Source: Bdellovibrionales bacterium (lineage in GTDB: Bacteria; Bdellovibrionota; Bdellovibrionia; Bdellovibrionales; UBA1609). From it: a DNA stretch of 64,000 bases. Numbering within the stretch: the stretch's first letter is position 1; every line of letters starts with the position of its first letter. The position numbers were made by a program, and so were the translations under genes. The stretch is from positions 384,001-448,000 of the forward strand of contig CBDHDF010000002.1 in assembly GCA_965261545.1 (NCBI GenBank), read 5' to 3'. Shown here piece by piece: positions 1 through 19,464 of this stretch. The notes beneath the pieces are model-generated. The model was not told the origin of the DNA and did no database searches. It worked only from the letters and a program-made list of their open reading frames with translations.

Positions 1-28
1 ATGAAGGCGATGAATGAAGGAGGCGTCA

Positions 29-832
29 ATGCCAGATAGTGCTAAGAAAGTAGGTCCTGAAGTTGTGTGGAAGCTTATGGAGAAGGTCGCAAAATCCCAA
101 GAAGAGACAGACCGTCATTTTAAAGAGATGTCCAAGGAGGCTGATCTCCAACGGCAGGAGGCTGATTTCCAACGGAAGGAGAGAGACCATCACTTCAAAA
201 AGATGTCCAAGGAGGCCGATCTCCAAAGGAAGGAGACAGACCGTCATTTCAAAGAGATGTCCAAGGAGGCCGAACTTCAAAGGGAGGAAGCCAAACTTCA
301 AAGGGAGAAGGCCGACCTTGAAAGGAAGGAGACAGATCGTTATTTGAAAGAAATATCCAAAAAGGCAGATATTCGCCATGCTCACTTGGAAAAAAGAACA
401 AGAGAACTCAACGAATTGTTTACGGGACAATGGGGAAAACTGATAGAAAGCCTTGTTAAAGGTGACTTGGTAAGACTTCTCAATGAAAGAAATATCCAAG
501 TGATGGGGCTTGCCCAGGAAAATTTTCGTAGGCGGAATGGAGAAGAATACGAGGTTGATATCATTGCAGTCAATGGGCGGGAGGTTGTTGTTGTGGAAGT
601 AAAAACCACTTTAAAAAATCATCACCTTGACCATTTTATAGAAAAGCTCGGCATGTTTAAAGATATTTTTCCAGAGTACAAAGACAAGATAATTTACGGT
701 GCCATAGCTTATTTGAAGGCCAATGAAGGGGCTCATAACAAGGCTGAAAAAAAAGGTCTTTTTGTAATCCGAGCTACCGGCAATAGTGCCACCATCACCA
801 ATCAAAAAGAATTTTCTCCGAAGGTGTTCTAA
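29..832 (+). CDS. Coiled-coil + PD-(D/E)XK nuclease-fold protein (DUF3782-like), array copy 1 (267 aa)
   Basis: GGAGG RBS before ATG 29; K/E/R-rich repeats then WGKLIESLV...EVDIIAVNGREVVVVEVK (E..D..EVK catalytic-type motif). Confidence 0.8.
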   Translation: MPDSAKKVGPEVVWKLMEKVAKSQEETDRHFKEMSKEADLQRQEADFQRKERDHHFKKMSKEADLQRKETDRHFKEMSKEAELQREEAKLQREKADLERKETDRYLKEISKKADIRHAHLEKRTRELNELFTGQWGKLIESLVKGDLVRLLNERNIQVMGLAQENFRRRNGEEYEVDIIAVNGREVVVVEVKTTLKNHHLDHFIEKLGMFKDIFPEYKDKIIYGAIAYLKANEGAHNKAEKKGLFVIRATGNSATITNQKEFSPKVF

Positions 833-1196
833 GGCAAAAAGGACTTTGATACCTCGTTAAAGAAGCTTATGGAGCCTTTTACAGTGACGAGTCTGTAGAT
901 ACAGCGAGTCTACTGAGCCCTTTGTACAGGAGAGTGCTCAACTTGAAGAGTCATGGGAACGACAAAGACTATAAAAGCCAAAAAAAAAGAAAGAAGAGGC
1001 TGGAGGAGATTCTTAAAAAGCGTCTTGTATTGGCTTTTTTGTAAACCTTGGTGTTTTTGAATGCTTTGTGGGCATAGAAGATGAGGTTAAAATGAAGATA
1101 ATGGACTTATTTTTGCCTGTGCCTTTGTTGTGTGATATTTGTGAAATGAAACCAATGGGTGAAGTCAAGTGAAGCCAATGAATGATGGAGGTATCA

Positions 1197-2225
1197 ATGT
1201 CAGATAGTGCTAAGAAAGTAGGTCCTGAAGTTGTGTGGAAGCTTATGGAGAAGGTAGCAAAATCCCAAGAAGAGACAAGTCTCCAACAGAAGGAGACAGA
1301 CCGTCATTTCAAAGAGATGTCCAAGGAGGCTGATCTCCAAAGGAAGGAGGCCGATCTCCAAAGGAAGGAGACAGACCATCACTTCAAAAAGATGTCCAAG
1401 GAGGCCGATCTCCAAAGGAAGGAGACAGACCATCACTTCAAAAAGATGTCCAAGGAGGCCGATCTCCAAAGGAAGGAGACAGACCATCACTTCAAAAAGA
1501 TGTCCAAGGAGGCCGAACTTCAAAGGGAGAAGGCCGACCTTGAAAGGAAGGAGACAGACCGTTATTTGAAAAAGATGTCCAAGGAGGCCGAACTTCAAAG
1601 GGAGAAGGCCGACCTTGAAAGGAAGGAGACAGACCGTCATTTCAAAGAGATGTCCAAGGAGGCCGAACTTCAAAGGGAGGAAGCCAAACTTCAAAGGGAG
1701 AAGGCCGACCTTGAAAGGAAGGAGACAGATCGTTATTTGAAAGAAATATCCAAAAAGGCAGATATTCGCCATGCTCACTTGGAAAAAAGAACAAGAGAAC
1801 TCAACGAATTGTTTACGGGACAATGGGGAAAACTGATAGAAAGCCTTGTTAAAGGTGACTTGGTAAGACTTCTCAATGAAAGAAATATCCAAGTGATGGG
1901 GCTTGCCCAGGAAAATTTTCGCAGGCGGAATGGAGAAGAATACGAGGTTGATATCATTGCAGTCAATGGGCGGGAGGTTGTTGTTGTGGAAGTAAAAACC
2001 ACTTTAAAAAATCAGCACCTTGACCATTTTATAGAAAAGCTCGGCATGTTTAAAGATATTTTTCCAGAGTACAAAGACAAGATAATTTACGGTGCCATAG
2101 CTTATTTGAAGGCCAATGAAGGGGCTCATAACAAGGCTGAAAAAAAAGGTCTTTTTGTAATCCGAGCTACCGGCAATAGTGCCACCATCACCAATCAAAA
2201 AGAATTTTCTCCGAAGGTGTTCTAA
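1197..2225 (+). CDS. Coiled-coil + PD-(D/E)XK protein, array copy 2 (342 aa)
   Basis: Near-identical paralog; longest coil. Confidence 0.8.
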   Translation: MSDSAKKVGPEVVWKLMEKVAKSQEETSLQQKETDRHFKEMSKEADLQRKEADLQRKETDHHFKKMSKEADLQRKETDHHFKKMSKEADLQRKETDHHFKKMSKEAELQREKADLERKETDRYLKKMSKEAELQREKADLERKETDRHFKEMSKEAELQREEAKLQREKADLERKETDRYLKEISKKADIRHAHLEKRTRELNELFTGQWGKLIESLVKGDLVRLLNERNIQVMGLAQENFRRRNGEEYEVDIIAVNGREVVVVEVKTTLKNQHLDHFIEKLGMFKDIFPEYKDKIIYGAIAYLKANEGAHNKAEKKGLFVIRATGNSATITNQKEFSPKVF

Positions 2226-2589
2226 GGCAAAAAGGACTTTGATACCTCGTTAAAGAAGCTTATGGAGCCTTTTACAGTGACGAGTCTGTAGATACAGCGA
2301 GTCTACTGAGCCCTTTGTACAGGAGAGTGCTCAACTTGAAGAGTCATGGGAACGACAAAGACTATAAAAGCCAAAAAAAAAGAAAGAAGAGGCTGGAGGA
2401 GATTCTTAAAAAGCGTCTTGTATTGGCTTTTTTGTAAACCTTGGTGTTTTTGAATGCTTTGTGGGCATAGAAGATGAGGTTAAAATGAAGATAATGGACT
2501 TATTTTTGCCTGTGCCTTTGTTGTGTGATATTTGTGAAATGAAACCAATGGGTGAAGTCAAGTGAAGCCAATGAATGATGGAGGTATCA

Positions 2590-3551
2590 ATGTCAGATAG
2601 TGCTAAGAAAGTAGGTCCTGAAGTTGTGTGGAAGCTTATGGAGAAGGTCGCAAAATCCCAAGAAGAGACAAGTCTCCAACAGAAGGAGACAGACCGTCAT
2701 TTCAAAGAGATGTCCAAGGAGGCTGATCTCCAAAGGAAGGAGGCCGATCTCCAAAGGAAGGAGACAGACCATCACTTCAAAAAGATGTCCAAGGAGGCCG
2801 ATCTCCAAAGGAAGGAGACAGACCATCACTTCAAAAAGATGTCCAAGGAGGCCGAACTTCAAAGGGAGAAGGCCGACCTTGAAAGGAAGGAGACAGACCG
2901 TTATTTGAAAAAGATGTCCAAGGAGGCCGAACTTCAAAGGGAGAAGGCCGACCTTGAAAGGAAGGAGACAGACCGTCATTTCAAAGAGATGTCCAAGGAG
3001 GCCGAACTTCAAAGGGAGGAAGGGAGAAGGCCGACCTTGAAAGGAAGGAGACAGATCGTTATTTGAAAGAAATATCCAAAAAGGCAGATATTCGCCATGC
3101 TCACTTGGAAAAAAGAACGAGAGAACTCAACGAATTGTTTACGGGACAATGGGGAAAACTGATAGAAAGCCTTGTTAAAGGTGACTTGGTAAGGCTTCTC
3201 AATGAAAGAAATATCCAAGTGATGGGGCTTGCCCAGGAAAATTTTCGCAGGCGGAATGGAGAAGAATACGAGGTTGATATCATTGCAGTCAATGGGCGGG
3301 AGGTTGTTGTTGTGGAAGTAAAAACCACTTTAAAAAATCAGCACCTTGACCATTTTATAGAAAAGCTCGGCATGTTTAAAGATATTTTTCCAGAGTACAA
3401 AGACAAGATAATTTACGGTGCCATAGCTTATTTGAAGGCCAATGAAGGGGCTCATAACAAGGCTGAAAAAAAAGGTCTTTTTGTAATCCGAGCTACCGGC
3501 AATAGTGCCACCATCACCAATCAAAAAGAATTTTCTCCGAAGGTGTTCTAA
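2590..3551 (+). pseudogene. Array copy 3, frameshifted by a 13-bp deletion near 3020 (324 aa if restored)
   Basis: caaagggaggaagggagaagg versus caaagggaggaagccaaacttcaaagggagaagg in other copies; ORFs 2575-3066 and 3063-3551. Confidence 0.8.
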
Positions 3552-3899
3552 GGCAAAAAGGACTTTGATGCCTCGTTAAAGAAGCTTATGGAGCCTTTTA
3601 GTGACGAGTCTGTAGATACAGCGAGTCTACTGAGCCCTTTGTACAGGAGAGTGCTCAACTTGAAGAGTCATGGGAACGACAAAGACTATAAAAGCCAAAA
3701 AAAAAGAAAGAAGAGGCTGGAGGAGATTCTTAAAAAGCGTCTTGTATTGGCTTTTTTGTAAACCTTGGTGTTTTTGAATGCTTTGTGGGCATAGAAGATG
3801 AGGTTAAAATGAAGATAATGGACTTATTTTTGCCTGTGCCTTTGTTGTGTGATATTTGTGAAATGAAACCAATGGGTGAAGCCAATGAATGAGGCGTCA

Positions 3900-4820
3900 A
3901 TGTCAGATAGTGCTAAGAAAGTAGGTCCTGAAGTTGTGTGGAAGCTTATGGAGAAGGTCGCAAAATCCCAAGAAGAGACAAGTCTCCAACAGAAGGAGAC
4001 AGACCGTCATTTCAAAGAGATGTCCAAGGAGGCTGATCTCCAAAGGAAGGAGGCCGATCTCCAAAGGAAGGAGACAGACCATCACTTCAAAAAGATGTCC
4101 AAGGAGGCCGAACTTCAAAGGGAGAAGGCCGACCTTGAAAGGAAGGAGACAGACCGTTATTTGAAAAAGATGTCCAAGGAGGCCGAACTTCAAAGGGAGA
4201 AGGCCGACCTTGAAAGGAAGGAGACAGACCGTCATTTCAAAGAGATGTCCAAGGAGGCCGAACTTCAAAGGGAGGAAGCCAAACTTCAAAGGGAGAAGGC
4301 CGACCTTGAAAGGAAGGAGACAGATCGTTATTTGAAAGAAATATCCAAAAAGGCAGATATTCGCCATGCTCACTTGGAAAAAAGAACGAGAGAACTCAAC
4401 GAATTGTTTACGGGACAATGGGGAAAACTGATAGAAAGCCTTGTTAAAGGTGACTTGGTAAGGCTTCTCAATGAAAGAAATATCCAAGTGATGGGGCTTG
4501 CCCAGGAAAATTTTCGCAGGCGGAATGGAGAAGAATACGAGGTTGATATCATTGCAGTCAATGGGCGGGAGGTTGTTGTTGTGGAAGTAAAAACCACTTT
4601 AAAAAATCAGCACCTTGACCATTTTATAGAAAAGCTCGGCATGTTTAAAGATATTTTTCCAGAGTACAAAGACAAGATAATTTACGGTGCCATAGCTTAT
4701 TTGAAGGCCAATGAAGGGGCTCATAACAAGGCTGAAAAAAAAGGTCTTTTTGTAATCCGAGCTACCGGCAATAGTGCCACCATCACCAATCAAAAAGAAT
4801 TTTCTCCGAAGGTGTTCTAA
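3900..4820 (+). CDS. Coiled-coil + PD-(D/E)XK protein, array copy 4 (306 aa)
   Basis: Near-identical paralog. Confidence 0.8.
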   Translation: MSDSAKKVGPEVVWKLMEKVAKSQEETSLQQKETDRHFKEMSKEADLQRKEADLQRKETDHHFKKMSKEAELQREKADLERKETDRYLKKMSKEAELQREKADLERKETDRHFKEMSKEAELQREEAKLQREKADLERKETDRYLKEISKKADIRHAHLEKRTRELNELFTGQWGKLIESLVKGDLVRLLNERNIQVMGLAQENFRRRNGEEYEVDIIAVNGREVVVVEVKTTLKNQHLDHFIEKLGMFKDIFPEYKDKIIYGAIAYLKANEGAHNKAEKKGLFVIRATGNSATITNQKEFSPKVF

Positions 4821-5159
4821 GGCAAAAAGGACTTTGATGCCTCGTTAAAGAAGCTTATGGAGCCTTTTAGTGACGAGTCTGTAGATACAGCGAGTCTACT
4901 GAGCCCTTTGTACAGGAGAGTGCTCAACTTGAAGAGTCATGGGAACGACAAAGACTATAAAAGCCAAAAAAAAAGAAAGAAGAGGCTGGAGGAGATTCTT
5001 AAAAAGCGTCTTGTATTGGCTTTTTTGTAAATCTTGGTGTTTTTGAATGCTTTGTGGGCATAGAAGATGAGGTTAAAATGAAGATAATGGACTTATTTTT
5101 GCATGTGCCTTTGTTGTGTGATATTTGTGAAATGAAACCAATGGGTGATGGAGGCGTCA

Positions 5160-6005
5160 ATGTCAGATAGTGCTAAGAAAGTAGGTCCTGAAGTTGTGTG
5201 GAAGCTTATGGAGAAGGTCGCAAAATCCCAAGAAGAGACAAGTCTCCAACAGAAGGAGACAGACCGTCATTTCAAAGAGATGTCCAAGGAGGCTGATCTC
5301 CAAAGGAAGGAGGCCGATCTCCAAAGGAAGGAGACAGACCATCACTTCAAAAAGATGTCCAAGGAGGCCGAACTTCAAAGGGAGAAGGCCGACCTTGAAA
5401 GGAAGGAGACAGACCGTTATTTGAAAAAGATGTCCAAGGAGGCCGAACTTCAAAGGGAGGAAGCCAAACTTCAAAGGGAGAAGGCCGACCTTGAAAGGAA
5501 GGAGACAGATCGTTATTTGAAAGAAATATCCAAAAAGGCAGATATTCGCCATGCTCACTTGGAAAAAAGAACGAAAGAGCTCAACGAATTATTTACGGGG
5601 CAATGGGGAAAACTGATAGAAAGCCTTGTTAAAGGTGACTTGGTAAGGCTTCTCAATGAAAGAAATATCCAAGTGATGGGGCTTGCCCAGGAAAATTTTC
5701 GCAGGCGGAATGGAGAAGAATACGAGGTTGATATCATTGCAGTCAATGGGCGGGAGGTTGTTGTTGTGGAAGTAAAAACCACTTTAAAAAATCATCACCT
5801 TGACCATTTTATAGAAAAGCTCGGCATGTTTAAAGATATTTTTCCAGAGTACAAAGACAAGATAATTTACGGTGCCATAGCTTATTTGAAGGCCAATGAA
5901 GGGGCTCATAACAAGGCTGAAAAAAAAGGTCTTTTTGTAATCCGAGCTACCGGCAATAGTGCCACCATCACCAATCAAAAAGAATTTTCTCCGAAGGTGT
6001 TCTAA
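5160..6005 (+). CDS. Coiled-coil + PD-(D/E)XK protein, array copy 5 (281 aa)
   Basis: Near-identical paralog. Confidence 0.8.
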   Translation: MSDSAKKVGPEVVWKLMEKVAKSQEETSLQQKETDRHFKEMSKEADLQRKEADLQRKETDHHFKKMSKEAELQREKADLERKETDRYLKKMSKEAELQREEAKLQREKADLERKETDRYLKEISKKADIRHAHLEKRTKELNELFTGQWGKLIESLVKGDLVRLLNERNIQVMGLAQENFRRRNGEEYEVDIIAVNGREVVVVEVKTTLKNHHLDHFIEKLGMFKDIFPEYKDKIIYGAIAYLKANEGAHNKAEKKGLFVIRATGNSATITNQKEFSPKVF

Positions 6006-6147
6006 GGCAAAAAGGACTTTGATACCTCGTTAAAGAAGCTTATGGAGCCTTTTAGTGACGAGTCTGTAGATACAGCGAGTCTACTGAGCCCTTTGTACAG
6101 GAGAGTGCTCAACTTGAAGAGTCATGGGAACGACAAAGACTATAAAA

Positions 6148-6223
6148 CCTGAATTCTACAAAAATGGTAACAAGGATTCTGGCCTAAGGTCCTGACATTG
6201 TGAAGCGACGGCTGGGATTAATA
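6148..6223 (-). mobile_element. Right-end remnant of IS1634-family element A
   Basis: Reverse complement of ~19389-19464 including the IR cctgaattctacaaaaatggtaacaagg. Confidence 0.9.
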
Positions 6224-7070
6224 GAGCCTGTAAACTATTTTGTGTAACTGCCGAATCATATTAGGATGAACTATCATCCTGAAAGGAGAAGGCAGAATGG
6301 ATATCAAGACAATGTGTGCCACGAAGTCACGGAGGTGACATGCTGATGTGAAGATGGAGGTAGGTCCTCCGCACTCGGATTTCAGGATTTGAGTGCAAAC
6401 AACCTTGCTGCTGCATGGGAGGCAAGGCCCTTGTAGTGAGCGAGCAAGGAAAAGGCCGTAGTAAACGGTCATGTAAGTACTAGGGAGATGAGCGAAAGCA
6501 AACCCACCGACGACGCATCGAAAGATTAACAGTCGCGTCAAAACCGAAGGAAGGTTGTCTCCGTCGGGATAAGTCTAGAGGAAGCCTGATGACCGATCTA
6601 GACGGCGTGCGGTGTATAGGGGGCATGAACCTAGTACAGGCTTCGTATCGGAACGTGGGAACCTGCTGGTGGATGATAAGGGAAACGCTATAAGGGAGAC
6701 CCCCGAAGTGCTAAATACCGATGCCACCAACCAGGGGCAGAGTGATTCGTAGTAGTGATGAAGTTCTTGTAATGAGAATGGAGCGAAGGGGTCACATGAT
6801 TTATGGAAGTAGTCAGGCCAACTTGGTTATGCTGAGGAGGAGCCTAATGAAACGGAAAATCATAGGAGCCGTGTGAGGGGAGACTTTCAAGCACGGTTCT
6901 GTGAGGGGCAGTGGGGGAAGTTCCCACTGCCTACTCGATAGGCAAGGAACTAGCGAAGAACGTCAAGACCCAAAAGGATTTATCCGACATAACGGGTCAA
7001 CTGATGAAGGTTGTTTTAGAGACGGCCCTTAATGCGGAAATGGACGATCACCTAGGTTATGAGAGGCATG
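6224..7070 (+). mobile_element. IS256-family element, 5' part (intron-containing), truncated by IS21-A
   Basis: Same start as the complete copy at 20956 (gagcctgtaaactattttgtgtaactgc); transposase ATG 6297. Confidence 0.9.
6314..6939 (+). ncRNA. ORF-less group II intron (626 nt, IIB / bacterial class D-like), copy 1
   Basis: 5' GTGTG; domain V gagccgtgtgaggggagactttcaagcacggttc; domain VI with bulged A ending ctcgAT; EBS1 GTTGTC (6554-6559) pairs with exon GACAAT; removal restores the IS256 transposase frame. Confidence 0.92.
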
Positions 7071-8820
7071 TGTTAGCTGACAATTAAAATGCCCCACCGT
7101 CGCCAATGAAAAGTGGCCACTTTTCAGAGGAGGACCTATGGTGATTTTTGGCATTGTCAACCGAGACGCATATAATCAATTGATATTACTCATAAAAAGG
7201 CTCCGAGCTGATAAGAACTCCTTTTGGGTTCTTGTCGACCTGGAAAGGGGCTCCGTGTTGGAGAGTCCTTCCATGACAGCCTATTCAGGTTCCATATTTG
7301 TCATTTGTAGACTGTTTCTGGATTTCAATGAGGTTAAATATATAGTCAAGAAAAGCCTGTTTAGGCTGTGCCCATTTTCTAAAGTATTTAAATTCCACAA
7401 GATTCCAACATTTGCCTCAATTTTCATGGAATTTCTTTCTGAAGACAGGCTTCCCTTAAAGCCGTCGCCAATTAAAATGTCCCACTTTCAATATGGAGGT
7501 TGTCGCCAATGAAAAGTGACCAATCTTCAGGGAGTGTTCAAATACTAGACAATGAAGTCTCTTCTTCTGATATAGATACTAAGCTCACAGAGTCCCTCCC
7601 TTTTGCAACTCAAAAGGTTAGCAATGAGGAGGATCTTATGATTAGTCAATACACTTTCGGCCGCATTCGTGACCTGAGTCACAGTGGTAAAAATAAGACA
7701 GAAATATCTCGTGAATTAGGGATCAATCGTAAGACGGTGCGCAAGTACTGTGAGTCCAACACCCCACCGAAGTACAAGGCGAGGTCCAAAAGAACTCGCC
7801 CAGATCCCCTTAATGGATATATGGATCGGGTGAAGTACTTTTTGAAGTTGAACCCAAGTAACACCGCCCGTGAAATATATGAGCTATTAGTTGAGGAGGG
7901 TTATCGTGGGAGTGAGAGAACGGTTCAGAGAAGAGTTTGTGAGATTCTTGGTTCTCGCCCCAAGGAGCGTTTTTTCAGCCAAAGATATGATCCTGGAGAA
8001 CAGGCTCAGTTTGATTTTAAGGAGAAGGTTGCTTTACCATTTGCCGATGGTGTTCAGATCGTTCATCTCCATTTTGGAACATTGCCTTGTAGTGGCACCT
8101 GTTGGGTTCGTGCCTACCCCTTTCTTGTCTATGAGTGTTTCATCGATGGGGTGCATGCTTTTTTGAAAAGATAGGTGGGATGAGTGCGAACATCCGTATT
8201 GATAATTTATCTCCCTGTGTGAAGAAAGTTCTTAAAGGAAATCAGCGAATTTACACCCAATCTTTTGATCGAGCCATCCAATACTATGGATTTAAGGTTC
8301 TTCCCTGCCGCGCAGGGAAGGGCTCTGACAAGGGAGATGTGGAGCGTGATATTCGAACCTTCAGTTCTCGGATAAAAAATATTGTTAGAAACAAAGGAAT
8401 TGTTTTTAAAGACTGGGATCATTTGAATCAGTTTTTAGAGTCTTATATGGATCAGCATCAGAGTGACTCCACCAAATCTCGCTTTGAGGAGGAGGCCAAA
8501 GTTCTTAAGCCTTTGCCTCCACGAGATGAAGATATTCTCTGTAAGGTGAATATTTGTCAAAGTAATGGTTATGGGACTTTGAGAATAGGTAAAACCACAT
8601 ATTCCATACCTGATGAGGTGATCCAATCTCCCTGTAAAACCGTACAGGGTCCCTATCATGTCACGATCTATCGTGCAGGAGGGAAGCAAGAAATTGTCGC
8701 TCGCCATCAAAGAAAACCTGATGGGGAGCATAGTTGCTGAATTTCACGAGTTTGACCCACTGAATTTCACGAAGTTTGACCCACCCCTCAGTCAGTCAAT
8801 TTGAGGTCCAATTTTGAATT

Positions 8821-9228
8821 TCACGGTGGCTCAAACTTTGTCAATTTAAACCTTCTTTTTTCTGCTGACTCAGTAACTTTTACACCCTCAATGTCACGAT
8901 GTCCCAACGGTGGGTTAAGGCTTATTTGCCAGAATGTTAGATGCCAACTAAAATTGGCCACTTTGTCATTGAGAATCTCGACCCTCCCCATTTCTGAGGT
9001 TTCAATGGAGGGTTTTTCAATGGGGATGTTGAATCCATTGCTCAAAATGGCAGAGAATAGCGAGCCAGTTATCCACAAATTTATCCATGGTGACGCTGCG
9101 TCTGTGACCCCGATGTCTATCAACGCAGCGCTGCCGTGGGTAAATTTTGTGGATAACTGGCGGGTACATGATTCAATAGTTCCGATGGAGTGTCTCCCGA
9201 TGGTGTCTTCCAAGGTCTGCCTTTGCAT
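8821..9228 (-). CDS. Possible passenger ORF downstream of istB (135 aa), hypothetical
   Basis: AAGGAG RBS directly after the istB stop, but overlaps a long palindrome. Confidence 0.3.
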   Translation of the reverse strand: MQRQTLEDTIGRHSIGTIESCTRQLSTKFTHGSAALIDIGVTDAASPWINLWITGSLFSAILSNGFNIPIEKPSIETSEMGRVEILNDKVANFSWHLTFWQISLNPPLGHRDIEGVKVTESAEKRRFKLTKFEPP

Positions 9229-9237
9229 GGATTCTCC

Positions 9238-9966
9238 TTAAATCGTCTTTCTCTGCCTAAATGAGCTTCCAGACATGGCTATTTTGATAGCTTGAGAGGT
9301 TATGCGATCCATAATAGCTTCACAAACGATGGGATCCTCAATGACTTCACTCCAATTTTTTATTGGAAGTTGGGTTGTAAGAATGAGGCTCAGGTCAGGG
9401 CCTCGTTCATCAATCACATCGTAAAGGTCTTGATATTGGTTAGAGGTAAGGGGCTTGATACCAAAATCATCCAACACAAGTATCGAGACTGATTTTAGCC
9501 TTTTAAGGAAGTTTAGATATGTCCCCTGGGCTCTTTCTAAGTTGAATTTTTCAACAAGAGTATTCATTCTGAAGAACTGAGTGGAAAAACCTTGGCGACA
9601 GGCGTGATTACCTATGGCACAAGCCAAATATGACTTTCCAACACCCGTTGGGCCAGAGATAATTATATTTTGACCTCTTTGAGCAAATCTCATAAGGGCT
9701 AGATCACTCAAAACTCTTCGATCGACTCCTCGGTTGGATTTGGTTTCAAAGGCCTCAAGGCTTGCTTTTTGCTGCAAAGCTGCTCTTTTGATAAGTCTTG
9801 AGACCTTCTGATTTTCACGATGGATTTTTTCGTCCTCAAAGATGACATTTAGAAAGTCCTCGTAACCAAGATCCTGCTCCTCAGCTTCTTTGAGCCTCTG
9901 GCTCAAGGTTGCTAAAACTCCCCTCATTTTTAATATCTCTAATAAATTTTCTGTTTGTTTAATCAT
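9238..9966 (-). CDS. istB: IS21 helper ATPase IstB
   Basis: GPTGVGKS Walker A, LVLDDFG, TTQLP, AIMDR. Confidence 0.93.
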   Translation of the reverse strand: MIKQTENLLEILKMRGVLATLSQRLKEAEEQDLGYEDFLNVIFEDEKIHRENQKVSRLIKRAALQQKASLEAFETKSNRGVDRRVLSDLALMRFAQRGQNIIISGPTGVGKSYLACAIGNHACRQGFSTQFFRMNTLVEKFNLERAQGTYLNFLKRLKSVSILVLDDFGIKPLTSNQYQDLYDVIDERGPDLSLILTTQLPIKNWSEVIEDPIVCEAIMDRITSQAIKIAMSGSSFRQRKTI

Positions 9967-10047
9967 TTTCTTCTCCTATACGACCTCTCTTATGGAGGTC
10001 AAAATGACCCGTTAGGTGGTTGAGAACCACCCACCGGGGCTATGTGA

Positions 10048-11571
10048 TTAGTGGCGGCAAGCATTCTCCCAGTGCTCTGAACCTCTTAAATTTTCATTAG
10101 GTTGACGGCAGACTCTTGGCTCCTCTTTTCGATGACTTTTTGCTGAAATAACTTTCTCAACTCCACGAACCCTAATGTCACTTAAAGCTGCATCTACAAA
10201 AAATGAGCAAGCCTGCTCCAAAGAAGCTGTTGAATACCGTTTTCTTAGATTGAGTATCCCCTGAACACGACGAAGATACATAAGCGGATGGCGAGGCTCT
10301 TTGATAAGCCGCTCGGCAACTTTGTGAATGCTTTCTCCAAGGCTTGATGCCTCTTTAAGTACATTTTGTGGCGTTTGCTCTAAAATGGCCCGGTGGGACT
10401 CAGGGAGATGAGATTTTGTCGTAAAGTAGCGCCCTCGACTGCCCTGGGGGATGTGATGTATCGCCACCCGCTCTAATTCTGAATAAACCTCCAAGCATTG
10501 TTGGCTAATACGAATATCTAACTTCTTGCCGCGATGCTTATAAGGAACAGAGTAAAAATTGTAGTTATATTGAATGTGACAATCCGGATGAACCTTGGAA
10601 TGCTTCCAGAATCCACTCTCATAGCGTCTTTCAGGAAGAGGATTCAATTTTGACTTCTCAAAAGATTCAAACTTCTGTCGACGACTCAACCCATACTTTT
10701 TTTGAATACGATCATTGAAAATAGCTGCCAAATGCTTCAACTCAGCGTTGATGTCTGCTAGAGAATACATTTGCCGCTCTCTTATCTGGGGCCAAGACCA
10801 GCGCCAAAAGACTCCAAGGGTATTTTCGATAAGACTCTTGTCTTTGGGGCGAGATGGCCTCATCGCCAAAGGAGCCACATTGTAGTGATCACACAAGAGG
10901 TGAAACTCAGAGTTAATATCGGGGTCATAAGTATCAGCTCTTGTCACTTGAACCTTTGCGTTATCAAAAGCAATGGTTCCGGTCACACCACCAAAAAACT
11001 CAAAACCAGAAGCTATGGAGGAAAAAACATCTTCCCGCTGCTCTGTTAATGTGGCGCATGGAAAGAAAAACTGACTCGATGGAAGTATCATTCCAAATAA
11101 TCGACATGGGATGAACTCCCCAGTCTTGGCATCTGTATAGCCAAAACAAGAGTCTTTTCCCTTATAGTCAAACTCACTCCGTTCACCAGGGGTGAATGTC
11201 TGGTGCATATCAAGCTTTATACTTGGGTGCCTCCGACGAAACTCTCTCCAAAAAGAAAGATAACTCACACCGTCAATCTCGGACTGAATATGTCGCTCCC
11301 AGTAATGAGCCAATTGAGTCCCTAGGCTTTGCTTGAGGCGAACATCTGTCCAATTCACCTTGGATGACCATGGGGCTTGGTAGGGCCCATGCGACCCCTT
11401 TGAGCGGCTGTTAGGGCCTCCGGGACTATCCTTCACATACTTCTTCACAGTGTTCCGACTAACACCCATAGCTCGAGCTATTTGTCTCGAACTGAGTCCA
11501 AGCTCTATGTATTTCTTAATATTGTTGATCATTCTTGCTCCTTTTTTCTTACCTTGTTTGCCCATAGACAC
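10048..11571 (-). CDS. istA: IS21 transposase IstA
   Basis: HTH, PGERSEFDY, FDNAK, PKDKSLIE. Confidence 0.93.
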   Translation of the reverse strand: MSMGKQGKKKGARMINNIKKYIELGLSSRQIARAMGVSRNTVKKYVKDSPGGPNSRSKGSHGPYQAPWSSKVNWTDVRLKQSLGTQLAHYWERHIQSEIDGVSYLSFWREFRRRHPSIKLDMHQTFTPGERSEFDYKGKDSCFGYTDAKTGEFIPCRLFGMILPSSQFFFPCATLTEQREDVFSSIASGFEFFGGVTGTIAFDNAKVQVTRADTYDPDINSEFHLLCDHYNVAPLAMRPSRPKDKSLIENTLGVFWRWSWPQIRERQMYSLADINAELKHLAAIFNDRIQKKYGLSRRQKFESFEKSKLNPLPERRYESGFWKHSKVHPDCHIQYNYNFYSVPYKHRGKKLDIRISQQCLEVYSELERVAIHHIPQGSRGRYFTTKSHLPESHRAILEQTPQNVLKEASSLGESIHKVAERLIKEPRHPLMYLRRVQGILNLRKRYSTASLEQACSFFVDAALSDIRVRGVEKVISAKSHRKEEPRVCRQPNENLRGSEHWENACRH

Positions 11572-12089
11572 CTCCTCGTTAATGCGTAGCGCAGAAAGAA
11601 TATCTATGAAGATCTAAGTGGGTCAATGTTTGGTGAAATTCAGTGGGTCAAACTTCGTGAAATTGGGTGGGTCAAACCAGGTGAAATTGGGTGGGTCAAA
11701 CTAGGTGAAATTTTGCATAGTCTTCTTCTTGAACATATCCTTCCCTCTTTAGTTCGTAAGCCGCAAGCCATGGTAAGATGGGCTCACCGATCCATTCTTT
11801 TTCCAACAAATGTGTTTGAAAATTTTTATCAATACCTCAAGCAACAAGATTCAAGCCGTGCCGAGCATGAATATTTAAGAGTTATCAACTTGATTCAGCA
11901 TGTGAGTTGGCAGGACTTATCTACAGCCATGGAGCTTCAATTAGAAAGTCGTGAGATTTTCGACTTTAAATCCATAAAAGATTTGCTCTTAGGAAATCCC
12001 ACCAAAATTAATTTGAATGACCAACAAAAACCACTTCAACCTAGATTGTCTCAATATGACAGTCTTGTTCCAAACATAGGAGGTTCTTA

Positions 12090-12491
12090 ATGAATCACGA
12101 AGAACTTATAGGTTCTCTTAAAAAACTCCGACTTCCAGCGATGGCGGATGAATATGTTGCAACGGCTAGAGTTGCCGAAAAAACAAAAAAGACGTATGAA
12201 CAGTATTTAGGTATACTCGTTCAAAATGAGCTTGCTGACAAGCATTCCCAGAGAGTGAAAAGATTGCTTAAGGGGGCCAAGCTTCCTCAACTTAAATCAC
12301 TCCAAACTTATAACTTCCAGAAAAGAACGGGAGTGACAGCTCAGCAAATTAATTGGATGGCAGAGGGAGAGTGGGTCAGAAAAGCCTGTAATGTTGTGTT
12401 TTACGGAAGCTTTGGAATGGGGAAAAGTCATTTGGCCATGTCCCTAGTTCGTTCACTCTGTGAACAAGGCTATCGATGTTTATGGGTCACA
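12090..12491 (+). pseudogene. istB: IstB of IS21-A, 3'-truncated and fused to array spacer sequence
   Basis: LKKLRLP...GSFGMGKSHLA; sequence switches to reverse-complement spacer at ~12492. Confidence 0.85.
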
Positions 12492-12761
12492 ATTATCTTC
12501 ATTTTAACCTCATCTTCTATGCCCACAAAGCATTCAAAAACACCAAGGTTTACAAAAAAGCCAATACAAGACGCTTTTTAAGAATCTCCTCCAGCCTCTT
12601 CTTTCTTTTTTTTTGGCTTTTATAGTCTTTGTCGTTCCCATGACTCTTCAAGTTGAGCACTCTCCTGTACAAAGGGCTCAGTAGACTCGCTGTATCTACA
12701 GACTCGTCACTGTAAAAGGCTCCATAAGCTTCTTTAACGAGGTATCAAAGTCCTTTTTGCC

Positions 12762-13619
12762 TTAGAACACCTTCGGAGAAAATTCTTTTTGATTGGTGAT
12801 GGTGGCACTATTGCCGGTAGCTCGGATTACAAAAAGACCTTTTTTTTCAGCCTTGTTATGAGCCCCTTCATTGGCCTTCAAATAAGCTATGGCACCGTAA
12901 ATTATCTTGTCTTTGTACTCTGGAAAAATATCTTTAAACATGCCGAGCTTTTCTATAAAATGGTCAAGGTGATGATTTTTTAAAGTGGTTTTTACTTCCA
13001 CAACAACAACCTCCCGCCCATTGACTGCAATGATATCAACCTCGTATTCTTCTCCATTCCGCCTGCGAAAATTTTCCTGGGCAAGCCCCATCACTTGGAT
13101 ATTTCTTTCATTGAGAAGCCTTACCAAGTCACCTTTAACAAGGCTTTCTATCAGTTTTCCCCATTGCCCCGTAAACAATTCATTGAGTTCTCTTGTTCTT
13201 TTTTCCAAGTGAGCATGGCGAATATCTGCCTTTTTGGATATTTCTTTCAAATAACGATCTGTCTCCTTCCTTTGAAGTTTGGCTTCCTCCCTTTGAAGTT
13301 CGGCCTCCTTGGACATCTCTTTGAAATGACGGTCTGTCTCCTTCCTTTCAAGGTCGGCCTTCTCCCTTTGAAGTTCGGCCTCCTTGGACATCTTTTTCAA
13401 ATAACGATCTGTCTCCTTCCTTTCAAGGTCGGCCTCCTTGGACATCTTTTTGAAGTGACGGTCTGTCTCCTTCCTTTGGAGATCAGCCTCCTTGGACATC
13501 TCTTTGAAATGACGGTCTGTCTCCTTCTGTTGGAGACTTGTCTCTTCTTGGGATTTTGCTACCTTCTCCATAAGCTTCCACACAACTTCAGGACCTACTT
13601 TCTTAGCACTATCTGGCAT
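12762..13619 (-). CDS. Coiled-coil + PD-(D/E)XK protein, array copy 6 (285 aa)
   Basis: Near-identical paralog. Confidence 0.8.
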   Translation of the reverse strand: MPDSAKKVGPEVVWKLMEKVAKSQEETSLQQKETDRHFKEMSKEADLQRKETDRHFKKMSKEADLERKETDRYLKKMSKEAELQREKADLERKETDRHFKEMSKEAELQREEAKLQRKETDRYLKEISKKADIRHAHLEKRTRELNELFTGQWGKLIESLVKGDLVRLLNERNIQVMGLAQENFRRRNGEEYEVDIIAVNGREVVVVEVKTTLKNHHLDHFIEKLGMFKDIFPEYKDKIIYGAIAYLKANEGAHNKAEKKGLFVIRATGNSATITNQKEFSPKVF

Positions 13620-13981
13620 TGACGCCTCCTTCATTCATTGGCTTCACTTGACTTCACCCATTGGTTTCATTTCACAAATATCACACAACAAAGGCACATG
13701 CAAAAATAAGTCCTTATCTTCATTTTAACCTCATCTTCTATGCCCACAAAGCATTCAAAAACACCAAGGTTTACAAAAAAGCCAATACAAGACGCTTTTT
13801 AAGAATCTCCTCCAGCCTCTTCTTTCTTTTTTTTTGGCTTTTATAGTCTTTGTCGTTCCCATAACTCTTCAAGTTGAGCACTCTCCTGTACAAAGGGCTC
13901 AGTAGACTCGCTGTATCTACAGACTCGTCACTGTAAAAGGCTCCATAAGCTTCTTTAACGAGGTATCAAAGTCCTTTTTGC

Positions 13982-14923
13982 CTAGAACACCTTCGGAGAA
14001 AATTCTTTTTGATTAGTGATGGTGGCACTATTGCCGGTAGCTCGGATTACAAAAAGACCTTTTTTTTCAGCCTTGTTATGAGCCCCTTCATTGGCCTTCA
14101 AATAAGCTATGGCACCGTAAATTATCTTGTCTTTGTACTCTGGAAAAATATCTTTAAACATGCCGAGCTTTTCTATAAAATGGTCAAGGTGATGATTTTT
14201 TAAAGTGGTTTTTACTTCCACAACAACAACCTCCCGCCCATTGACTGCAATGATATCAACCTCGTATTCTTCTCCATTCCGCCTGCGAAAATTTTCCTGG
14301 GCAAGCCCCATCACTTGGATATTTCTTTCATTGAGAAGTCTTACCAAGTCACCTTTAACAAGGCTTTCTATCAGTTTTCCCCATTGCCCCGTAAATAATT
14401 CGTTGAGCTCTTTCGTTCTTTTTTCCAAGTGAGCATGGCGAATATCTGCCTTTTTGGATATTTCTTTCAAATAACGATCTGTCTCCTTCCTTTCAAGGTC
14501 GGCCTTCTCCCTTTGAAGTTTGGCTTCCTCCCTTTGAAGTTTGGCTTCCTCCCTTTGAAGTTCGGCCTCCTTGGACATCTCTTTGAAATGACGGTCTGTC
14601 TCCTTCCTTTCAAGGTCGGCCTTCTCCCTTTGAAGTTCGGCCTCCTTGGACATCTTTTTCAAATAACGATCTGTCTCCTTCCTTTCAAGGTCGGCTTCCT
14701 CCCTTTGAAGTTCGGCCTCCTTGGACATCTTTTTGAAGTGATGGTCTGTCTCCTTCCTTTGGAGATCGGCCTCCTTCCTTTGGAGATCAGCCTCCTTGGA
14801 CATCTCTTTGAAATGACGGTCTGTCTCCTTCTGTTGGAGACTTGTCTCTTCTTGGGATTTTGCTACCTTCTCCATAAGCTTCCACACAACTTCAGGACCT
14901 ACTTTCTTAGCACTATCTGACAT
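13982..14923 (-). CDS. Coiled-coil + PD-(D/E)XK protein, array copy 7 (313 aa)
   Basis: Near-identical paralog; TAG stop. Confidence 0.8.
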   Translation of the reverse strand: MSDSAKKVGPEVVWKLMEKVAKSQEETSLQQKETDRHFKEMSKEADLQRKEADLQRKETDHHFKKMSKEAELQREEADLERKETDRYLKKMSKEAELQREKADLERKETDRHFKEMSKEAELQREEAKLQREEAKLQREKADLERKETDRYLKEISKKADIRHAHLEKRTKELNELFTGQWGKLIESLVKGDLVRLLNERNIQVMGLAQENFRRRNGEEYEVDIIAVNGREVVVVEVKTTLKNHHLDHFIEKLGMFKDIFPEYKDKIIYGAIAYLKANEGAHNKAEKKGLFVIRATGNSATITNQKEFSPKVF

Positions 14924-15262
14924 TGACACCTCCATCACCCATTGGTTTCATTTCACAAATATCACACAACAAAGGCACATGCAAAAATAAGTCCTTATCT
15001 TCATTTTAACCTCATCTTCTATGCCCACAAAGCATTCAAAAACACCAAGATTTACAAAAAAGCCAATACAAGACGCTTTTTAAGAATCTCCTCCAGCCTC
15101 TTCTTTCTTTTTTTTTGGCTTTTATAGTCTTTGTCGTTCCCATGACTCTTCAAGTTGAGCACTCTCCTGTACAAAGGGCTCAGTAGACTCGCTGTATCTA
15201 CAGACTCGTCACTGTAAAAGGCTCCATAAGCTTCTTTAACGAGGTATCAAAGTCCTTTTTGC

Positions 15263-16141
15263 CTAGAACACCTTCGGAGAAAATTCTTTTTGATTGGTGA
15301 TGGTGGCACTATTGCCGGTAGCTCGGATTACAAAAAGACCTTTTTTTTCAGCCTTGTTATGAGCCCCTTCATTGGCCTTCAAATAAGCTATGGCACCGTA
15401 AATTATCTTGTCTTTGTACTCTGGAAAAATATCTTTAAACATGCCGAGCTTTTCTATAAAATGGTCAAGGTGCTGATTTTTTAAAGTGGTTTTTACTTCC
15501 ACAACAACAACCTCCCGCCCATTGACTGCAATGATATCAACCTCGTATTCTTCTCCATTCCGCCTGCGAAAATTTTCCTGGGCAAGCCCCATCACTTGGA
15601 TATTTCTTTCATTGAGAAGCCTTACCAAGTCACCTTTAACAAGGCTTTCTATCAGTTTTCCCCATTGCCCCGTAAACAATTCATTGAGTTCTCTTGTTCT
15701 TTTTTCCAAGTGAGCATGGCGAATATCTGCCTTTTTGGATATTTCTTTCAAATAACGATCTGTCTCCTTCCTTTCAAGGTCGGCCTTCTCCCTTTGAAGT
15801 TTGGCTTCCTCCCTTTGAAGTTCGGCCTCCTTGGACATCTTTTTGAAGTGATGGTCTGTCTCCTTCCTTTGGAGATCGGCCTCCTTGGACATCTTTTTGA
15901 AGTGATGGTCTGTCTCCTTCCTTTGGAGATCGGCCTCCTTGGACATCTTTTTGAAGTGATGGTCTGTCTCCTTCCTTTGGAGATCGGCCTCCTTCCTTTG
16001 GAGATCAGCCTCCTTGGACATCTCTTTGAAATGACGGTCTGTCTCCTTCTGTTGGAGACTTGTCTCTTCTTGGGATTTTGCGACCTTCTCCATAAGCTTC
16101 CACACAACTTCAGGACCTACTTTCTTAGCACTATCTGACAT
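15263..16141 (-). CDS. Coiled-coil + PD-(D/E)XK protein, array copy 8 (292 aa)
   Basis: Near-identical paralog; TAG stop. Confidence 0.8.
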   Translation of the reverse strand: MSDSAKKVGPEVVWKLMEKVAKSQEETSLQQKETDRHFKEMSKEADLQRKEADLQRKETDHHFKKMSKEADLQRKETDHHFKKMSKEADLQRKETDHHFKKMSKEAELQREEAKLQREKADLERKETDRYLKEISKKADIRHAHLEKRTRELNELFTGQWGKLIESLVKGDLVRLLNERNIQVMGLAQENFRRRNGEEYEVDIIAVNGREVVVVEVKTTLKNQHLDHFIEKLGMFKDIFPEYKDKIIYGAIAYLKANEGAHNKAEKKGLFVIRATGNSATITNQKEFSPKVF

Positions 16142-16480
16142 TGACGCCTCCATCACCCATTGGTTTCATTTCACAAATATCACACAACAAAGGCACATGC
16201 AAAAATAAGTCCATTATCTTCATTTTAACCTCATCTTCTATGCCCACAAAGCATTCAAAAACACCAAGATTTACAAAAAAGCCAATACAAGACGCTTTTT
16301 AAGAATCTCCTCCAGCCTCTTCTTTCTTTTTTTTTGGCTTTTATAGTCTTTGTCGTTCCCATGACTCTTCAAGTTGAGCACTCTCCTGTACAAAGGGCTC
16401 AGTAGACTCGCTGTATCTACAGACTCGTCACTAAAAGGCTCCATAAGCTTCTTTAACGAGGCATCAAAGTCCTTTTTGCC

Positions 16481-17488
16481 TTAGAACACCTTCGGAGAAA
16501 ATTCTTTTTGATTGGTGATGGTGGCACTATTGCCGGTAGCTCGGATTACAAAAAGACCTTTTTTTTCAGCCTTGTTATGAGCCCCTTCATTGGCCTTCAA
16601 ATAAGCTATGGCACCGTAAATTATCTTGTCTTTGTACTCTGGAAAAATATCTTTAAACATGCCGAGCTTTTCTATAAAATGGTCAAGGTGCTGATTTTTT
16701 AAAGTGGTTTTTACTTCCACAACAACAACCTCCCGCCCATTGACTGCAATGATATCAACCTCGTATTCTTCTCCATTCCGCCTGCGAAAATTTTCCTGGG
16801 CAAGCCCCATCACTTGGATATTTCTTTCATTGAGAAGCCTTACCAAGTCACCTTTAACAAGGCTTTCTATCAGTTTTCCCCATTGCCCCGTAAATAATTC
16901 GTTGAGCTCTTTCGTTCTTTTTTCCAAGTGAGCATGGCGAATATCTGCCTTTTTGGATATTTCTTTCAAATAACGATCTGTCTCCTTCCTTTCAAGGTCG
17001 GCCTTCTCCCTTTGAAGTTTGGCTTCCTCCCTTTGAAGTTCGGCCTCCTTGGACATCTTTTTCAAATAACGATCTGTCTCCTTCCTTTCAAGGTCGGCCT
17101 TCTCCCTTTGAAGTTTGGCTTCCTCCCTTTGAAGTTCGGCCTCCTTGGACATCTTTTTGAAGTGATGGTCTGTCTCCTTCCTTTGGAGATCGGCCTCCTT
17201 GGACATCTTTTTGAAGTGATGGTCTGTCTCCTTCCTTTGGAGATCGGCCTCCTTGGACATCTTTTTGAAGTGATGGTCTGTCTCCTTCCTTTGGAGATCG
17301 GCCTCCTTGGACATCTTTTTGAAGTGACGGCCTGTCTCCTTCCTTTGGAGATCAGCCTCCTTGGACATCTCTTTGAAATGACGGTCTGTCTCCTTCTGTT
17401 GGAGACTTGTCTCTTCTTGGGATTTTGCTACCTTCTCCATAAGCTTCCACACAACTTCAGGACCTACTTTCTTAGCACTATCTGGCAT
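16481..17488 (-). CDS. Coiled-coil + PD-(D/E)XK protein, array copy 9 (335 aa)
   Basis: Near-identical paralog. Confidence 0.8.
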   Translation of the reverse strand: MPDSAKKVGPEVVWKLMEKVAKSQEETSLQQKETDRHFKEMSKEADLQRKETGRHFKKMSKEADLQRKETDHHFKKMSKEADLQRKETDHHFKKMSKEADLQRKETDHHFKKMSKEAELQREEAKLQREKADLERKETDRYLKKMSKEAELQREEAKLQREKADLERKETDRYLKEISKKADIRHAHLEKRTKELNELFTGQWGKLIESLVKGDLVRLLNERNIQVMGLAQENFRRRNGEEYEVDIIAVNGREVVVVEVKTTLKNQHLDHFIEKLGMFKDIFPEYKDKIIYGAIAYLKANEGAHNKAEKKGLFVIRATGNSATITNQKEFSPKVF

Positions 17489-17714
17489 TGACGCCTCCTT
17501 CATTCATTGGCTTCACTTGACTTCACCCATTGGTTTCATTTCACAAATATCACACAACAAAGGCACATGCAAAAATAAGTCCATTATCTTCATTTTAACC
17601 TCATCTTCTATGCCCACAAAGCATTCAAAAACACCAAGATTTACAAAAAAGCCAATACAAGACGCTTTTTAAGAATCTCCTCCAGCCTCTTCTTTCTTTT
17701 TTTTTGGCTTTTAT

Positions 17715-19464
17715 CCTGAATTCTACAAAAATGGTAACAAGGTTTAGGTCTAAAGTCTAGAATCTGACTTCAGAACAAATATAACGCGGTTTCAGACCTC
17801 TTTTGAATTGAAAGAATTCAAAATCCTTGTTACCATTGGTAACAATGTCTTATTTACATGAGCAAAAGAGAAACGGTAAAATTTACGTTTATGAGATACA
17901 CGGCTATTGGGACTCAAAGAAAAAACAATCTCGCCAAAAAAGAACCTATTTAGGGCGTAAAGATGAGGTCAGCGGTGAGATTAAAACTAAAAAGAAAAAA
18001 GTCCCTATAGGCTCCTATACTGTTGGATCTTTATATTTTCTGAAAGAAATTTGTAAACAATCCAAACTACTTAAAGTTGTCAAACAAGTTTTTCCTGAGG
18101 AATATGAAAAGATTCTTCATTTGTCATGTTTTAAGATTATAAAGAAAGAGCCTTATTATTTTTATAAGTCTTGGTGTGAAGAGTCTTACGTTTCCAAAGA
18201 AATTTCTATGGGATCGACCAAAACTAGTAGACTTTTACACTCTATTGGTCAAGACGAGAAAAAAATAGATATTTTTTTTACAAATTGGATAAAAGAGCTT
18301 AAATCTACTGGCTCTATCCTATTTGATATTACATCTATTTCTTCTTATGGGTCCAAAAATGAATTTTTGGAACGAGGTTACAATAGAGATGGCGAAAATT
18401 TAGAACAAGTAAATTTGGGTTTGATTGCACGAGCTTCCAGCACTAATTCAATAGGCTTACCTTTAGCTTACAGGGTATACCCTGGCAGTATTACGGATGT
18501 AACGACACTGAGGAATGTAACAGATCTTGTGGGTAGATATAAGTTAAATCTTGATATTTTAGTGATGGACAAAGGGTTTTATAGTCAAGAAAACATAAAG
18601 AATATGAACAAACAAGGCTTGAGCTATATAGTTCCTATGAGCTTCAGCACTCAGAAATCTAAAGAAATTTTATTTGACTTGCATGACAAGTTATTATCTC
18701 CTGGATCATTATTTGCTTTCTATGAGCAAGTATACTCCTACTCTAAGAAAGAAATAGAAATTGGAAGTGAAAGTTGTATGGCTCATGTTTTTTTAGAAGG
18801 TAAGAGGCGGTCTGATCAGGAGTCTATTTTTATAAGAAAGATATCAGATTTAGAAAATCTTTTTTTAGAAAAAAATTTTTCAAGTAAGGATGATGCATCT
18901 CTTTATTTGAAAGAGACATTAAAAACTAAGAAAAATTTTTTTTTCATTGAAGAATCCGAGAATAAATTTGTAATTGAGAGAAACCTCAATGTTTTTCGAG
19001 ATGAGATGATAAAGATGGGCTGCTTGATTCTCATCACTAATAACATTCAAATGGATCGGGATGAAATTTTAAGATTATATAGAAGAAAAGATTGTGTAGA
19101 AAAGGTTTTTCGTGCTTTTAAGCATGACATAGATGAGAAAAGAAATAGGACACATTCGTTGATCGCAATGAGAGGAAGTATTTTCATTAATTTTAGCTCT
19201 TTAATTTTGATTACATGGGTTGATCATGTGATGAAGAAAAATGAGCTATACAAAAAAATGACAAAAGCCGAACTTTATAAGATATTAGACCGTCTCAAGT
19301 TGTATGAGCTAGCCACAGGCACTCCCATACTTGGTGAAGTGTCAAAAAAGCAAAAAGATATTTTGAAGGCGTTCAATGTAAGTACAAATATTAATCCCAG
19401 CCGTCGCTTCACAATGTCAGGACCTTAGGCCAGAATCCTTGTTACCATTTTTGTAGAATTCAGG
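17715..19464 (+). mobile_element. IS1634-family element A, full length, non-matching flanks
   Basis: Perfect 28-bp IRs cctgaattctacaaaaatggtaacaagg. Confidence 0.9.
17845..19428 (+). CDS. IS1634-family DDE transposase
   Basis: FDITSISSY, GYNRDG..QVNLGL, YPGSITDV, MDKGFYS, YRRKD.VEK.F. Confidence 0.88.
   Translation: MSYLHEQKRNGKIYVYEIHGYWDSKKKQSRQKRTYLGRKDEVSGEIKTKKKKVPIGSYTVGSLYFLKEICKQSKLLKVVKQVFPEEYEKILHLSCFKIIKKEPYYFYKSWCEESYVSKEISMGSTKTSRLLHSIGQDEKKIDIFFTNWIKELKSTGSILFDITSISSYGSKNEFLERGYNRDGENLEQVNLGLIARASSTNSIGLPLAYRVYPGSITDVTTLRNVTDLVGRYKLNLDILVMDKGFYSQENIKNMNKQGLSYIVPMSFSTQKSKEILFDLHDKLLSPGSLFAFYEQVYSYSKKEIEIGSESCMAHVFLEGKRRSDQESIFIRKISDLENLFLEKNFSSKDDASLYLKETLKTKKNFFFIEESENKFVIERNLNVFRDEMIKMGCLILITNNIQMDRDEILRLYRRKDCVEKVFRAFKHDIDEKRNRTHSLIAMRGSIFINFSSLILITWVDHVMKKNELYKKMTKAELYKILDRLKLYELATGTPILGEVSKKQKDILKAFNVSTNINPSRRFTMSGP

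Follow-up and report, generated by a model that had tools for sequence, protein, structure and literature searches.

What keeps many neighbouring copies of one nuclease gene in a bacterial genome, when the copies share an almost constant catalytic domain and differ in the length of a helical stalk? The question is raised by a 64,000-nucleotide (nt) stretch of a Bdellovibrionales bacterium (assembly GCA_965261545.1, contig CBDHDF010000002.1, positions 384,001-448,000), here called the window, which holds nine copies of a single stalked-nuclease gene. A first-pass annotation, made from the letters alone, proposed a candidate undescribed system that diversifies in geometry and not in catalytic sequence. 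Our analysis shows instead that the array is real and of unusual size but belongs to a known family without functional characterisation, and that slippage together with ordinary gene duplication explains most of the stalk-length pattern. Throughout, the head is the C-terminal nuclease domain of about 160 amino acids (aa), the stalk is the N-terminal helical module region, the spacer is the DNA between copies, and C2 is the contig that carries the window.

Organisation of the array

The nine copies and their lengths (Table 1) reproduce the first-pass annotation exactly, including the 324 aa that length arithmetic gives for copy 3 once a 13-nt loss near position 3021 is restored. What had been read as one array over positions 1-17714 is discontinuous: nested insertion sequence (IS) and intron DNA fills 6148-12491, and the last four copies run in inverted orientation. 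The spacer after copy 5 ends at the right end of an IS1634 element, and the spacer before the copy starting at 17488 begins at the left end of that element. Because both of these spacer ends carry an identical 6-base-pair (bp) duplication, of the same size as at two other copies of the IS1634 element, the nine copies once formed one head-to-tail row that IS1634 split. Partial inversion of the row followed the split, by a mechanism that we infer, and the far end of the row is cut off by an IS21 element at 12490.

The 5' half of the spacer is a diverged 3'-end piece of a neighbouring membrane-protein gene (C2:334.3 kb). A short basic open reading frame (ORF) of about 33-36 codons with a possible ribosome binding site (RBS), found at 938-1054 of the window and at equivalent positions in every spacer, is a remnant of this captured gene. 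A promoter scan of 820-2600 returned three sites against 1.9 +/- 1.4 expected, which is chance level. None of five runs was listed as holding RNA, which counts neither for nor against expression.

The genome-wide count of paralogues that the annotation had called for reached 21 family matches: 18 copies at C2:342-402 kb, of which nine lie immediately upstream of the window (C2:342-375 kb), one copy at C2:640 kb, and two fragments.

Table 1. Features of the nuclease array, in window coordinates; gene copies run from their ATG, which is the higher coordinate on the minus strand.
Coordinates	Strand	Feature
29..832	+	Copy 1, 267 aa; first-in-unit leader type, lacking the EETSLQQ module
833..1196	+	Repeated spacer ending in an RBS; spacers are 339-364 nt
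1197..2225	+	Copy 2, 342 aa, the longest
2590..3551	+	Copy 3, frameshifted; stalk-only ORF and head-only ORF
3900..4820	+	Copy 4, 306 aa
5160..6005	+	Copy 5, 281 aa
6006..6147	+	IS1634-split spacer, 5' part; last 6 bp are the target duplication (6142-6147)
6148..6223	-	IS1634 right end, 76 bp, matching the element at 17715-19464 with 100% identity
6224..7085	+	Left part of IS256 type, into which an ORF-less group II intron (about 6312-6937) is inserted; right boundary approximate
7086..12490	.	IS21-family element (+), cut off at 12490 and enclosing another IS21 element (-, about 8728-11714); left boundary approximate
12492..12761	-	Truncated spacer, original distal end of the row
12762..13619	-	285-aa copy, originally 9th in the row
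13982..14923	-	313-aa copy, originally 8th in the row
15263..16141	-	292-aa copy, originally 7th in the row
16481..17488	-	335-aa copy, originally 6th in the row
17489..17714	-	Split spacer, 3' part; begins with the second target-duplication copy (17709-17714)
17715..19464	+	Full IS1634-family element that split the row; inversion breakpoint (NF033559, E 2e-65)

A PD-(D/E)XK head on a helical stalk

The encoded protein runs from a leader of about 24 aa through a long charged helical stalk and a conserved neck to the head. An AlphaFold2 model built on an alignment of 105 sequences (pLDDT 91.8) predicts a single helix over residues 8-151 and an alpha/beta head; a head-only model made without an alignment reached a pLDDT of 52 and was discarded. 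The closest structure, a nuclease domain from the Pyrococcus repair endonuclease 2vld, aligns over 106 residues (Z 9.8, root-mean-square deviation 3.1), with the match confined to model residues 133-250; the Can2/Card1 nuclease domains come next (Z 8.2-8.7). Foldseek likewise ranked EndoMS and 2vld at the top, at E 1.1e-3, with none at E <= 0.001, and the hidden Markov model (HMM) of Hjc scored above its cut-off (25.3 vs 21.1 bits, 49 positions). The E..EVD..EVK motif of the first-pass annotation is present as E138..D175..E188-V-K190; in the 105 sequences D175, E188 and K190 are invariant and E138 is conserved in at least 90%. HMM match, residue conservation, model and structure matches together support the fold proposed earlier, and sequence and model show the head to be a NucS/Hjc-like PD-(D/E)XK domain with an intact active site.

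Family assignment also upheld the earlier suggestion of an expanded DUF3782-like family of unassigned function. The genome's own proteins P0001-P0008 carry a precomputed match to PF26618, named DUF8196 in the Atlas, and the closest Atlas clusters are DUF8196/DUF3782 at 0.96. PF26618 was not among the matches of our local Pfam scan, as the local copy of Pfam probably lacks the model. The HMMs of DUF3782 (PF12644), which just 13-29% of the members of the closest Atlas clusters carry, and of DUF1626/PDDEXK_10 (PF07788) gave no match at E <= 0.1, and the YhgA-like domain (PF04754) is matched by the adjoining Rpn genes and not by the stalked nuclease. The N-terminus, modelled as a single helix behind the short leader, has no mismatch-binding domain like that of NucS/EndoMS and no other DNA-binding or anchoring domain. 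Longer fused forms were absent among 23 matches from 600 candidates, all of 285-345 aa, which is weak evidence. As far as sequence and model indicate, the protein is a stand-alone coiled-coil and PD-(D/E)XK nuclease of the DUF8196/DUF3782 type. The family has 579 representatives at E <= 1e-30 among 1.84 billion clusters of 50% identity, and literature searches whose coverage left out most subscription journals and supplements found no functional study of it.

Constant heads and variable stalks

The head had been described as nearly invariant apart from R/K and H/Q substitutions, and this holds: the nine copies differ at 11 nucleotide sites, with eight synonymous changes, two replacements (R/K and H/Q) and one stop-codon swap. 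We considered and rejected this invariance as proof of a special constraint within the array. The non-coding spacer (nucleotide diversity, pi, of 1.2%) is as invariant as the head (0.94%), so that recent duplication and conversion account for most of the head's constancy. On a longer time scale purifying selection acts on the heads, with a ratio of nonsynonymous to synonymous divergence (dN/dS) of 0.11-0.16 against older paralogues and a corresponding polymorphism ratio (pN/pS) of 0.08 in the window.

The contrast between a constant head and a variable stalk is equally borne out. Stalks are strings of 21-nt (7-aa) and 33-nt (11-aa) modules. All 110 of the 110 exact stalk repeats of at least 12 nt with spacings up to 110 nt, scored in 16 in-frame copies, lie in the 7a+11b module register, so slippage alone yields in-frame steps of 7 or 11 residues that keep the register. 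Shorter microhomologies of 8-11 nt would shift the frame in 34 of 77 cases; two of the 18 copies are frameshifted, and a single additional homopolymer base disrupts one upstream copy.

The annotation had also stressed that no two lengths are equal. This is true of the nine but not of the 18, among which 260 aa and 278 aa each occur twice, with module strings that still differ; equal-length copies are also found in the carrier genomes G008, G045 and G347. Under a null fitted to the module counts, nine distinct lengths have a probability of about 0.15 (0.015-0.38 for 12-40 equally likely states), and we rejected their distinctness as proof of selection. With a spacer as invariant as the head, repeats that force steps of 7 or 11, and distinct lengths expected by chance, the proposal that geometry is the selected variable is not supported.

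History of the island

The upstream copies sit in a repeated unit of about 3.5 kb that also carries an Rpn/YhgA gene (PF04754, E 1.5e-23) and a captured 3' piece of the neighbouring membrane-protein gene. Copies in the island fall into two head types (dS 0.26-0.30), and there are two kinds of leader and two of downstream flank. The pair of type A head, spacer and type B tail persists in two units; five others have one copy each, and the nine-copy row occupies the last unit. The heads are mosaic, as the four-gamete test is failed by 20 of 36 informative site pairs among the nine heads and by 187 of 990 among all 18, and recA is present in the genome. We infer that unequal crossing-over within an old gene pair accounts for collapse, retention and expansion alike. 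An ancestral pair with head types A and B would have lain in the Rpn-containing unit, which was duplicated in tandem; crossing-over inside the pair would then have left single chimeras in most units, the pair in two and nine or more copies in one, and an IS1634 insertion would later have split and inverted the row. Stalk lengths probably differ because the DNA modules slip and recombine far faster than the heads mutate, in which case selection would maintain the head and the coiled-coil register, and no particular set of lengths.

Amplification is common in this genome. It is undergoing a burst of IS expansion, in which at least five ORF families have 136, 78, 71, 71 and 61 members, and nine regions of local tandem amplification are listed, three belonging to the stalked-nuclease family and one being an Rpn array. 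Further tandem repeats with a period of 2-5 kb lie at G000:C7:228,450-232,919, C10:340,505-350,969, C10:760,864-775,242 and C11:1,007,261-1,023,218. Three PD-(D/E)XK-type families are expanded: the stalked nuclease, Rpn/YhgA (24 ORFs) and a third of 23 ORFs, which we take to resemble another Rpn type.

The Rpn array, outside the window at G000:C2:285,528-312,998, comprises eight tandem Rpn/YhgA genes, mostly in a unit of about 1.7 kb, and each has an RpnS-like internal RBS and ATG. Their four-residue repeat tracts span 27, 35, 39, 43, 47, 51, 55 and 59 residues, so that eight of eight are distinct out of nine possible lengths, a range taken from the data (P 0.008 under a uniform null, 0.024 under a normal null). 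In this array, selection may favour toxin-antitoxin repeat numbers that are unique to each copy. Between some of its copies lies a gene that is presumably Uma2-like.

The family in other genomes

Among close relatives, 5 of 40 carry the family, with 4-11 matches each, and five genomes picked for holding one match proved to have 2-12. A tree of 67 heads places 10 of 11 multi-row genome groups each on one side of a branch, which makes the expansions separate events. Each carrier genome has its own stalk modules in variable number, as in the Poribacteria triplets of 282/307/314 aa and the 4-residue stalk step of G031, and directly adjacent copies of differing length recur in G031, G043, G287 and G347. 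As the same pattern arose separately in other carriers, the idea of an undescribed system peculiar to this locus is not supported. Two or three copies lie within 6 kb at 6 of 41 named loci; our island, by comparison, has 18 copies in 60 kb. Near-identical dispersed copies in G006, G008 and G031 have in common the gene and short flanks. Their ends are variable: in 17 copies compared from four genomes, the shared stretch extends 1 to 211 nt beyond the stop codon and its upstream limit varies, and no fixed mobile-element ends (terminal repeats or target duplications) were found.

A survey of 118 neighbouring genes at 31 loci, from which three Spirochaetia loci without called genes were dropped, one short locus having no neighbours, revealed no conserved neighbour or partner. 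The annotation's point that the window has no cognate methyltransferase is supported to the extent that none is conserved next to the family at these loci, but an N6-methylase does occur, solely in a type I operon at one Poribacteria site. In the Poribacteria loci L048, L050 and L052, family members lie between hsdS and hsdR inside type I operons, either one alone or three with stalks of unequal length.

What the array may be for

We lean towards the explanation that the protein is a latent DNA endonuclease which oligomerises through its stalk and serves in conflict or phage defence, with length variation as a by-product. By analogy with DUF3782-type stalks the protein would form trimers; it is predicted to be metal-dependent and would normally be latent, and a part in conflict or anti-phage defence, like that of the co-amplified Rpn genes, is faintly suggested. 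Several observations weigh against this explanation. The function as a latent defence nuclease has little direct support: PADLOC matches are weak and cover the nuclease domain only (best E 3e-5), and a defence context, a type I restriction-modification (R-M) operon, was seen at 3 of the 31 loci, all at one Poribacteria site, with the rest mostly among housekeeping genes. Enrichment in defence islands is not shown by these 3 of 31 loci, which amount to one event. All 17 unbroken or readable module strings are distinct, even where the heads are identical, and the neighbouring Rpn array, with its eight distinct repeat numbers, suggests that, for a similar gene of this island, diversity of length may be under selection. 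Moreover, 5 of 400 genomes of the phylum (one of them shared with the survey of 40 relatives) carry the family and each has at least seven matches, with scoring limited to nine candidates, an all-or-many distribution that drift does not fully explain.

If length is not a by-product, the stalk could act as an Rpn-like specificity code, in which length and module order set subunit assembly. Each copy would then be an insulated, self-regulating nuclease, or mismatched hetero-oligomers would switch activity, and unique stalks would be kept while redundant ones are lost. The precedent is Rpn itself, where repeat number sets toxin-antitoxin specificity (PMC10400941). The stalked genes are co-amplified with Rpn genes bearing an internal RBS and ATG, and the distinct module strings, the unequal neighbours in four other genomes and the Rpn array all fit such a code. 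Its weakness lies in the geometry of the protein: as the stalk is N-terminal, an internal start would retain the nuclease, and no RpnS-like inhibitor could be made in that way. The genome has no separate stalk-only gene besides the two frameshifted copies, which could yield stalk fragments; the distinctness of the nine lengths is not significant, and equal-length copies exist. We regard a code of this kind as unlikely, though directly testable at this locus. Its fullest form is slightly more doubtful still: the array would be a panel of single-gene nuclease toxins or defence effectors, insulated from one another or cross-inhibiting, with slippage generating the variants and selection for uniqueness retaining them. 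If true, it would be an independently evolved mirror image of the Rpn repeat code, common to thousands of uncharacterised proteins.

The copies could also be selfish, if the nuclease occasionally cuts near its own gene and so stimulates duplication and spread until carriers end with many copies, the stalk being a passive spacer. The all-or-many distribution, the genome-specific expansions, the dispersed copies sharing only gene and short flanks, and the lack of a partner gene all agree with this; the absence of fixed ends among the 17 copies does not, tandem units bring neighbouring DNA along in the manner of plain duplications, the same picture would come from conversion between old paralogues, and unrelated genes of this genome are amplified too, which makes us think this explanation improbable. 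Greatly less probable is the molecular ruler that the annotation had suggested, with stalks holding the nuclease at different distances from an anchor so that cut positions differ. The continuous modelled helix, the three related genes inside type I R-M operons and the spacer-length precedent of EcoR124I/II (as cited in PMC10400941) would suit it, but a ruler needs a second functional end, and here the short leader alone precedes the stalk, no partner is conserved, and the lengths are what slippage gives and are not conserved between genomes. We give the least credence to an assembly artefact, in which copies are fewer and lengths are mis-assembled or are mixed strain variants. None of the listed read contigs spans the stretch, one upstream copy is broken by the extra homopolymer base, and the best-matching read runs may come from the source sample itself. 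Against this, the copies carry distinct single-nucleotide haplotypes, and one spacer is split by an IS whose insertion left matching target duplications. A read-contig comparison covering 5050-13720, in which the contigs listed do not include the IS1634 and IS21 junctions, found the head-to-tail joint in short-read contigs of one sample, possibly the source sample, in two of four runs. Measured against two IS21 elements, the depth of a spacer/head contig there is higher than their per-copy depth by factors of about 10, 16-18 and 8-12 in three runs (hand arithmetic, and depth is not copy number), where 11-12 copies of that part are assembled. A run of a second study has a type B-like copy with 36 differences.

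Whichever explanation holds, the locus offers a ready allelic series of eight intact genes that have in essence the same head but stalks up to 75 residues apart in length, and that lie beside Rpn arrays whose repeat-number code is understood, so that the role of stalk length is directly testable here. If length proves neutral, the array is a textbook case of how amplification, slippage and gene conversion act together in a genome undergoing an IS burst.

Other features of the window

The fragment at 6224..7085 is presumably of the IS256 family, to judge from its protein sequence. The junction of the 76-bp IS1634 right end with an IS256-type end occurs twice in the genome, at 6148-6311 of the window and at G000:C11:1,057,378-1,057,453. 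At 21046-22297, an IS256-type gene carries, at one site, an ORF-less group II intron of about 626 nt (Rfam matches) twice over, head to tail; the same intron is present singly at about 6312-6937, and an intron-less form was seen in read contigs. Among IS elements at 52613-58219 lie candidates that we take, from their sequences, to be a HipA-like kinase gene and an AbiEi/AbiEii-like gene pair.

Comparison with known systems

The nearest relatives are the DUF8196 (PF26618)/DUF3782 (PF12644) endonucleases, which share the N-terminal coiled-coil stalk and PD-(D/E)XK head. Coiled-coil-fronted endonucleases of the DUF3782 kind are mentioned by Hartmann et al. (2016, PMC4786415), where beta-layer constructs are trimeric and bacterial members lack nonads, as the array proteins do; the array proteins differ in having no beta-layer (A-T-K) motif, and the array differs from related loci, with their 2-3 tandem copies, in its size. 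DUF1626/COG5493 (PF07788) has the same architecture, in which an N-terminal region that is mostly coiled coil precedes a restriction-endonuclease-like domain of unassigned function (Knizewski et al. 2007, PMC1913061), and a patchy distribution (PMC3424549). Its motif III lysine is often threonine, whereas that of the array family is invariant. Among solved folds, NucS/EndoMS, Can2/Card1 and Hjc are closest to the head, but the array protein has a coiled-coil stalk in place of the N-terminal DNA-binding domain of NucS, and no CARF sensor as in Can2/Card1.

In its genomics the array gene parallels Rpn/YhgA, with which it is physically co-amplified in the island. According to Zhong et al. (2023, PMC10400941), rpn is likewise a multi-copy, stand-alone PD-(D/E)XK gene with a helical region of variable repeat number; its arrays arise by tandem duplication, its dispersed copies consist of the gene and short flanks with variable ends, without fixed ends or terminal repeats, and one extra four-residue repeat abolishes toxin-antitoxin pairing (their Fig. 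4D). The two proteins have no sequence similarity, the array repeats are N-terminal 7/11 modules and the Rpn repeats C-terminal four-residue ones, and the array gene lacks the intragenic antitoxin geometry. Genomically the array gene resembles an Rpn-style solo conflict nuclease, yet it is no Rpn; it is a member of the DUF8196/DUF3782 type.

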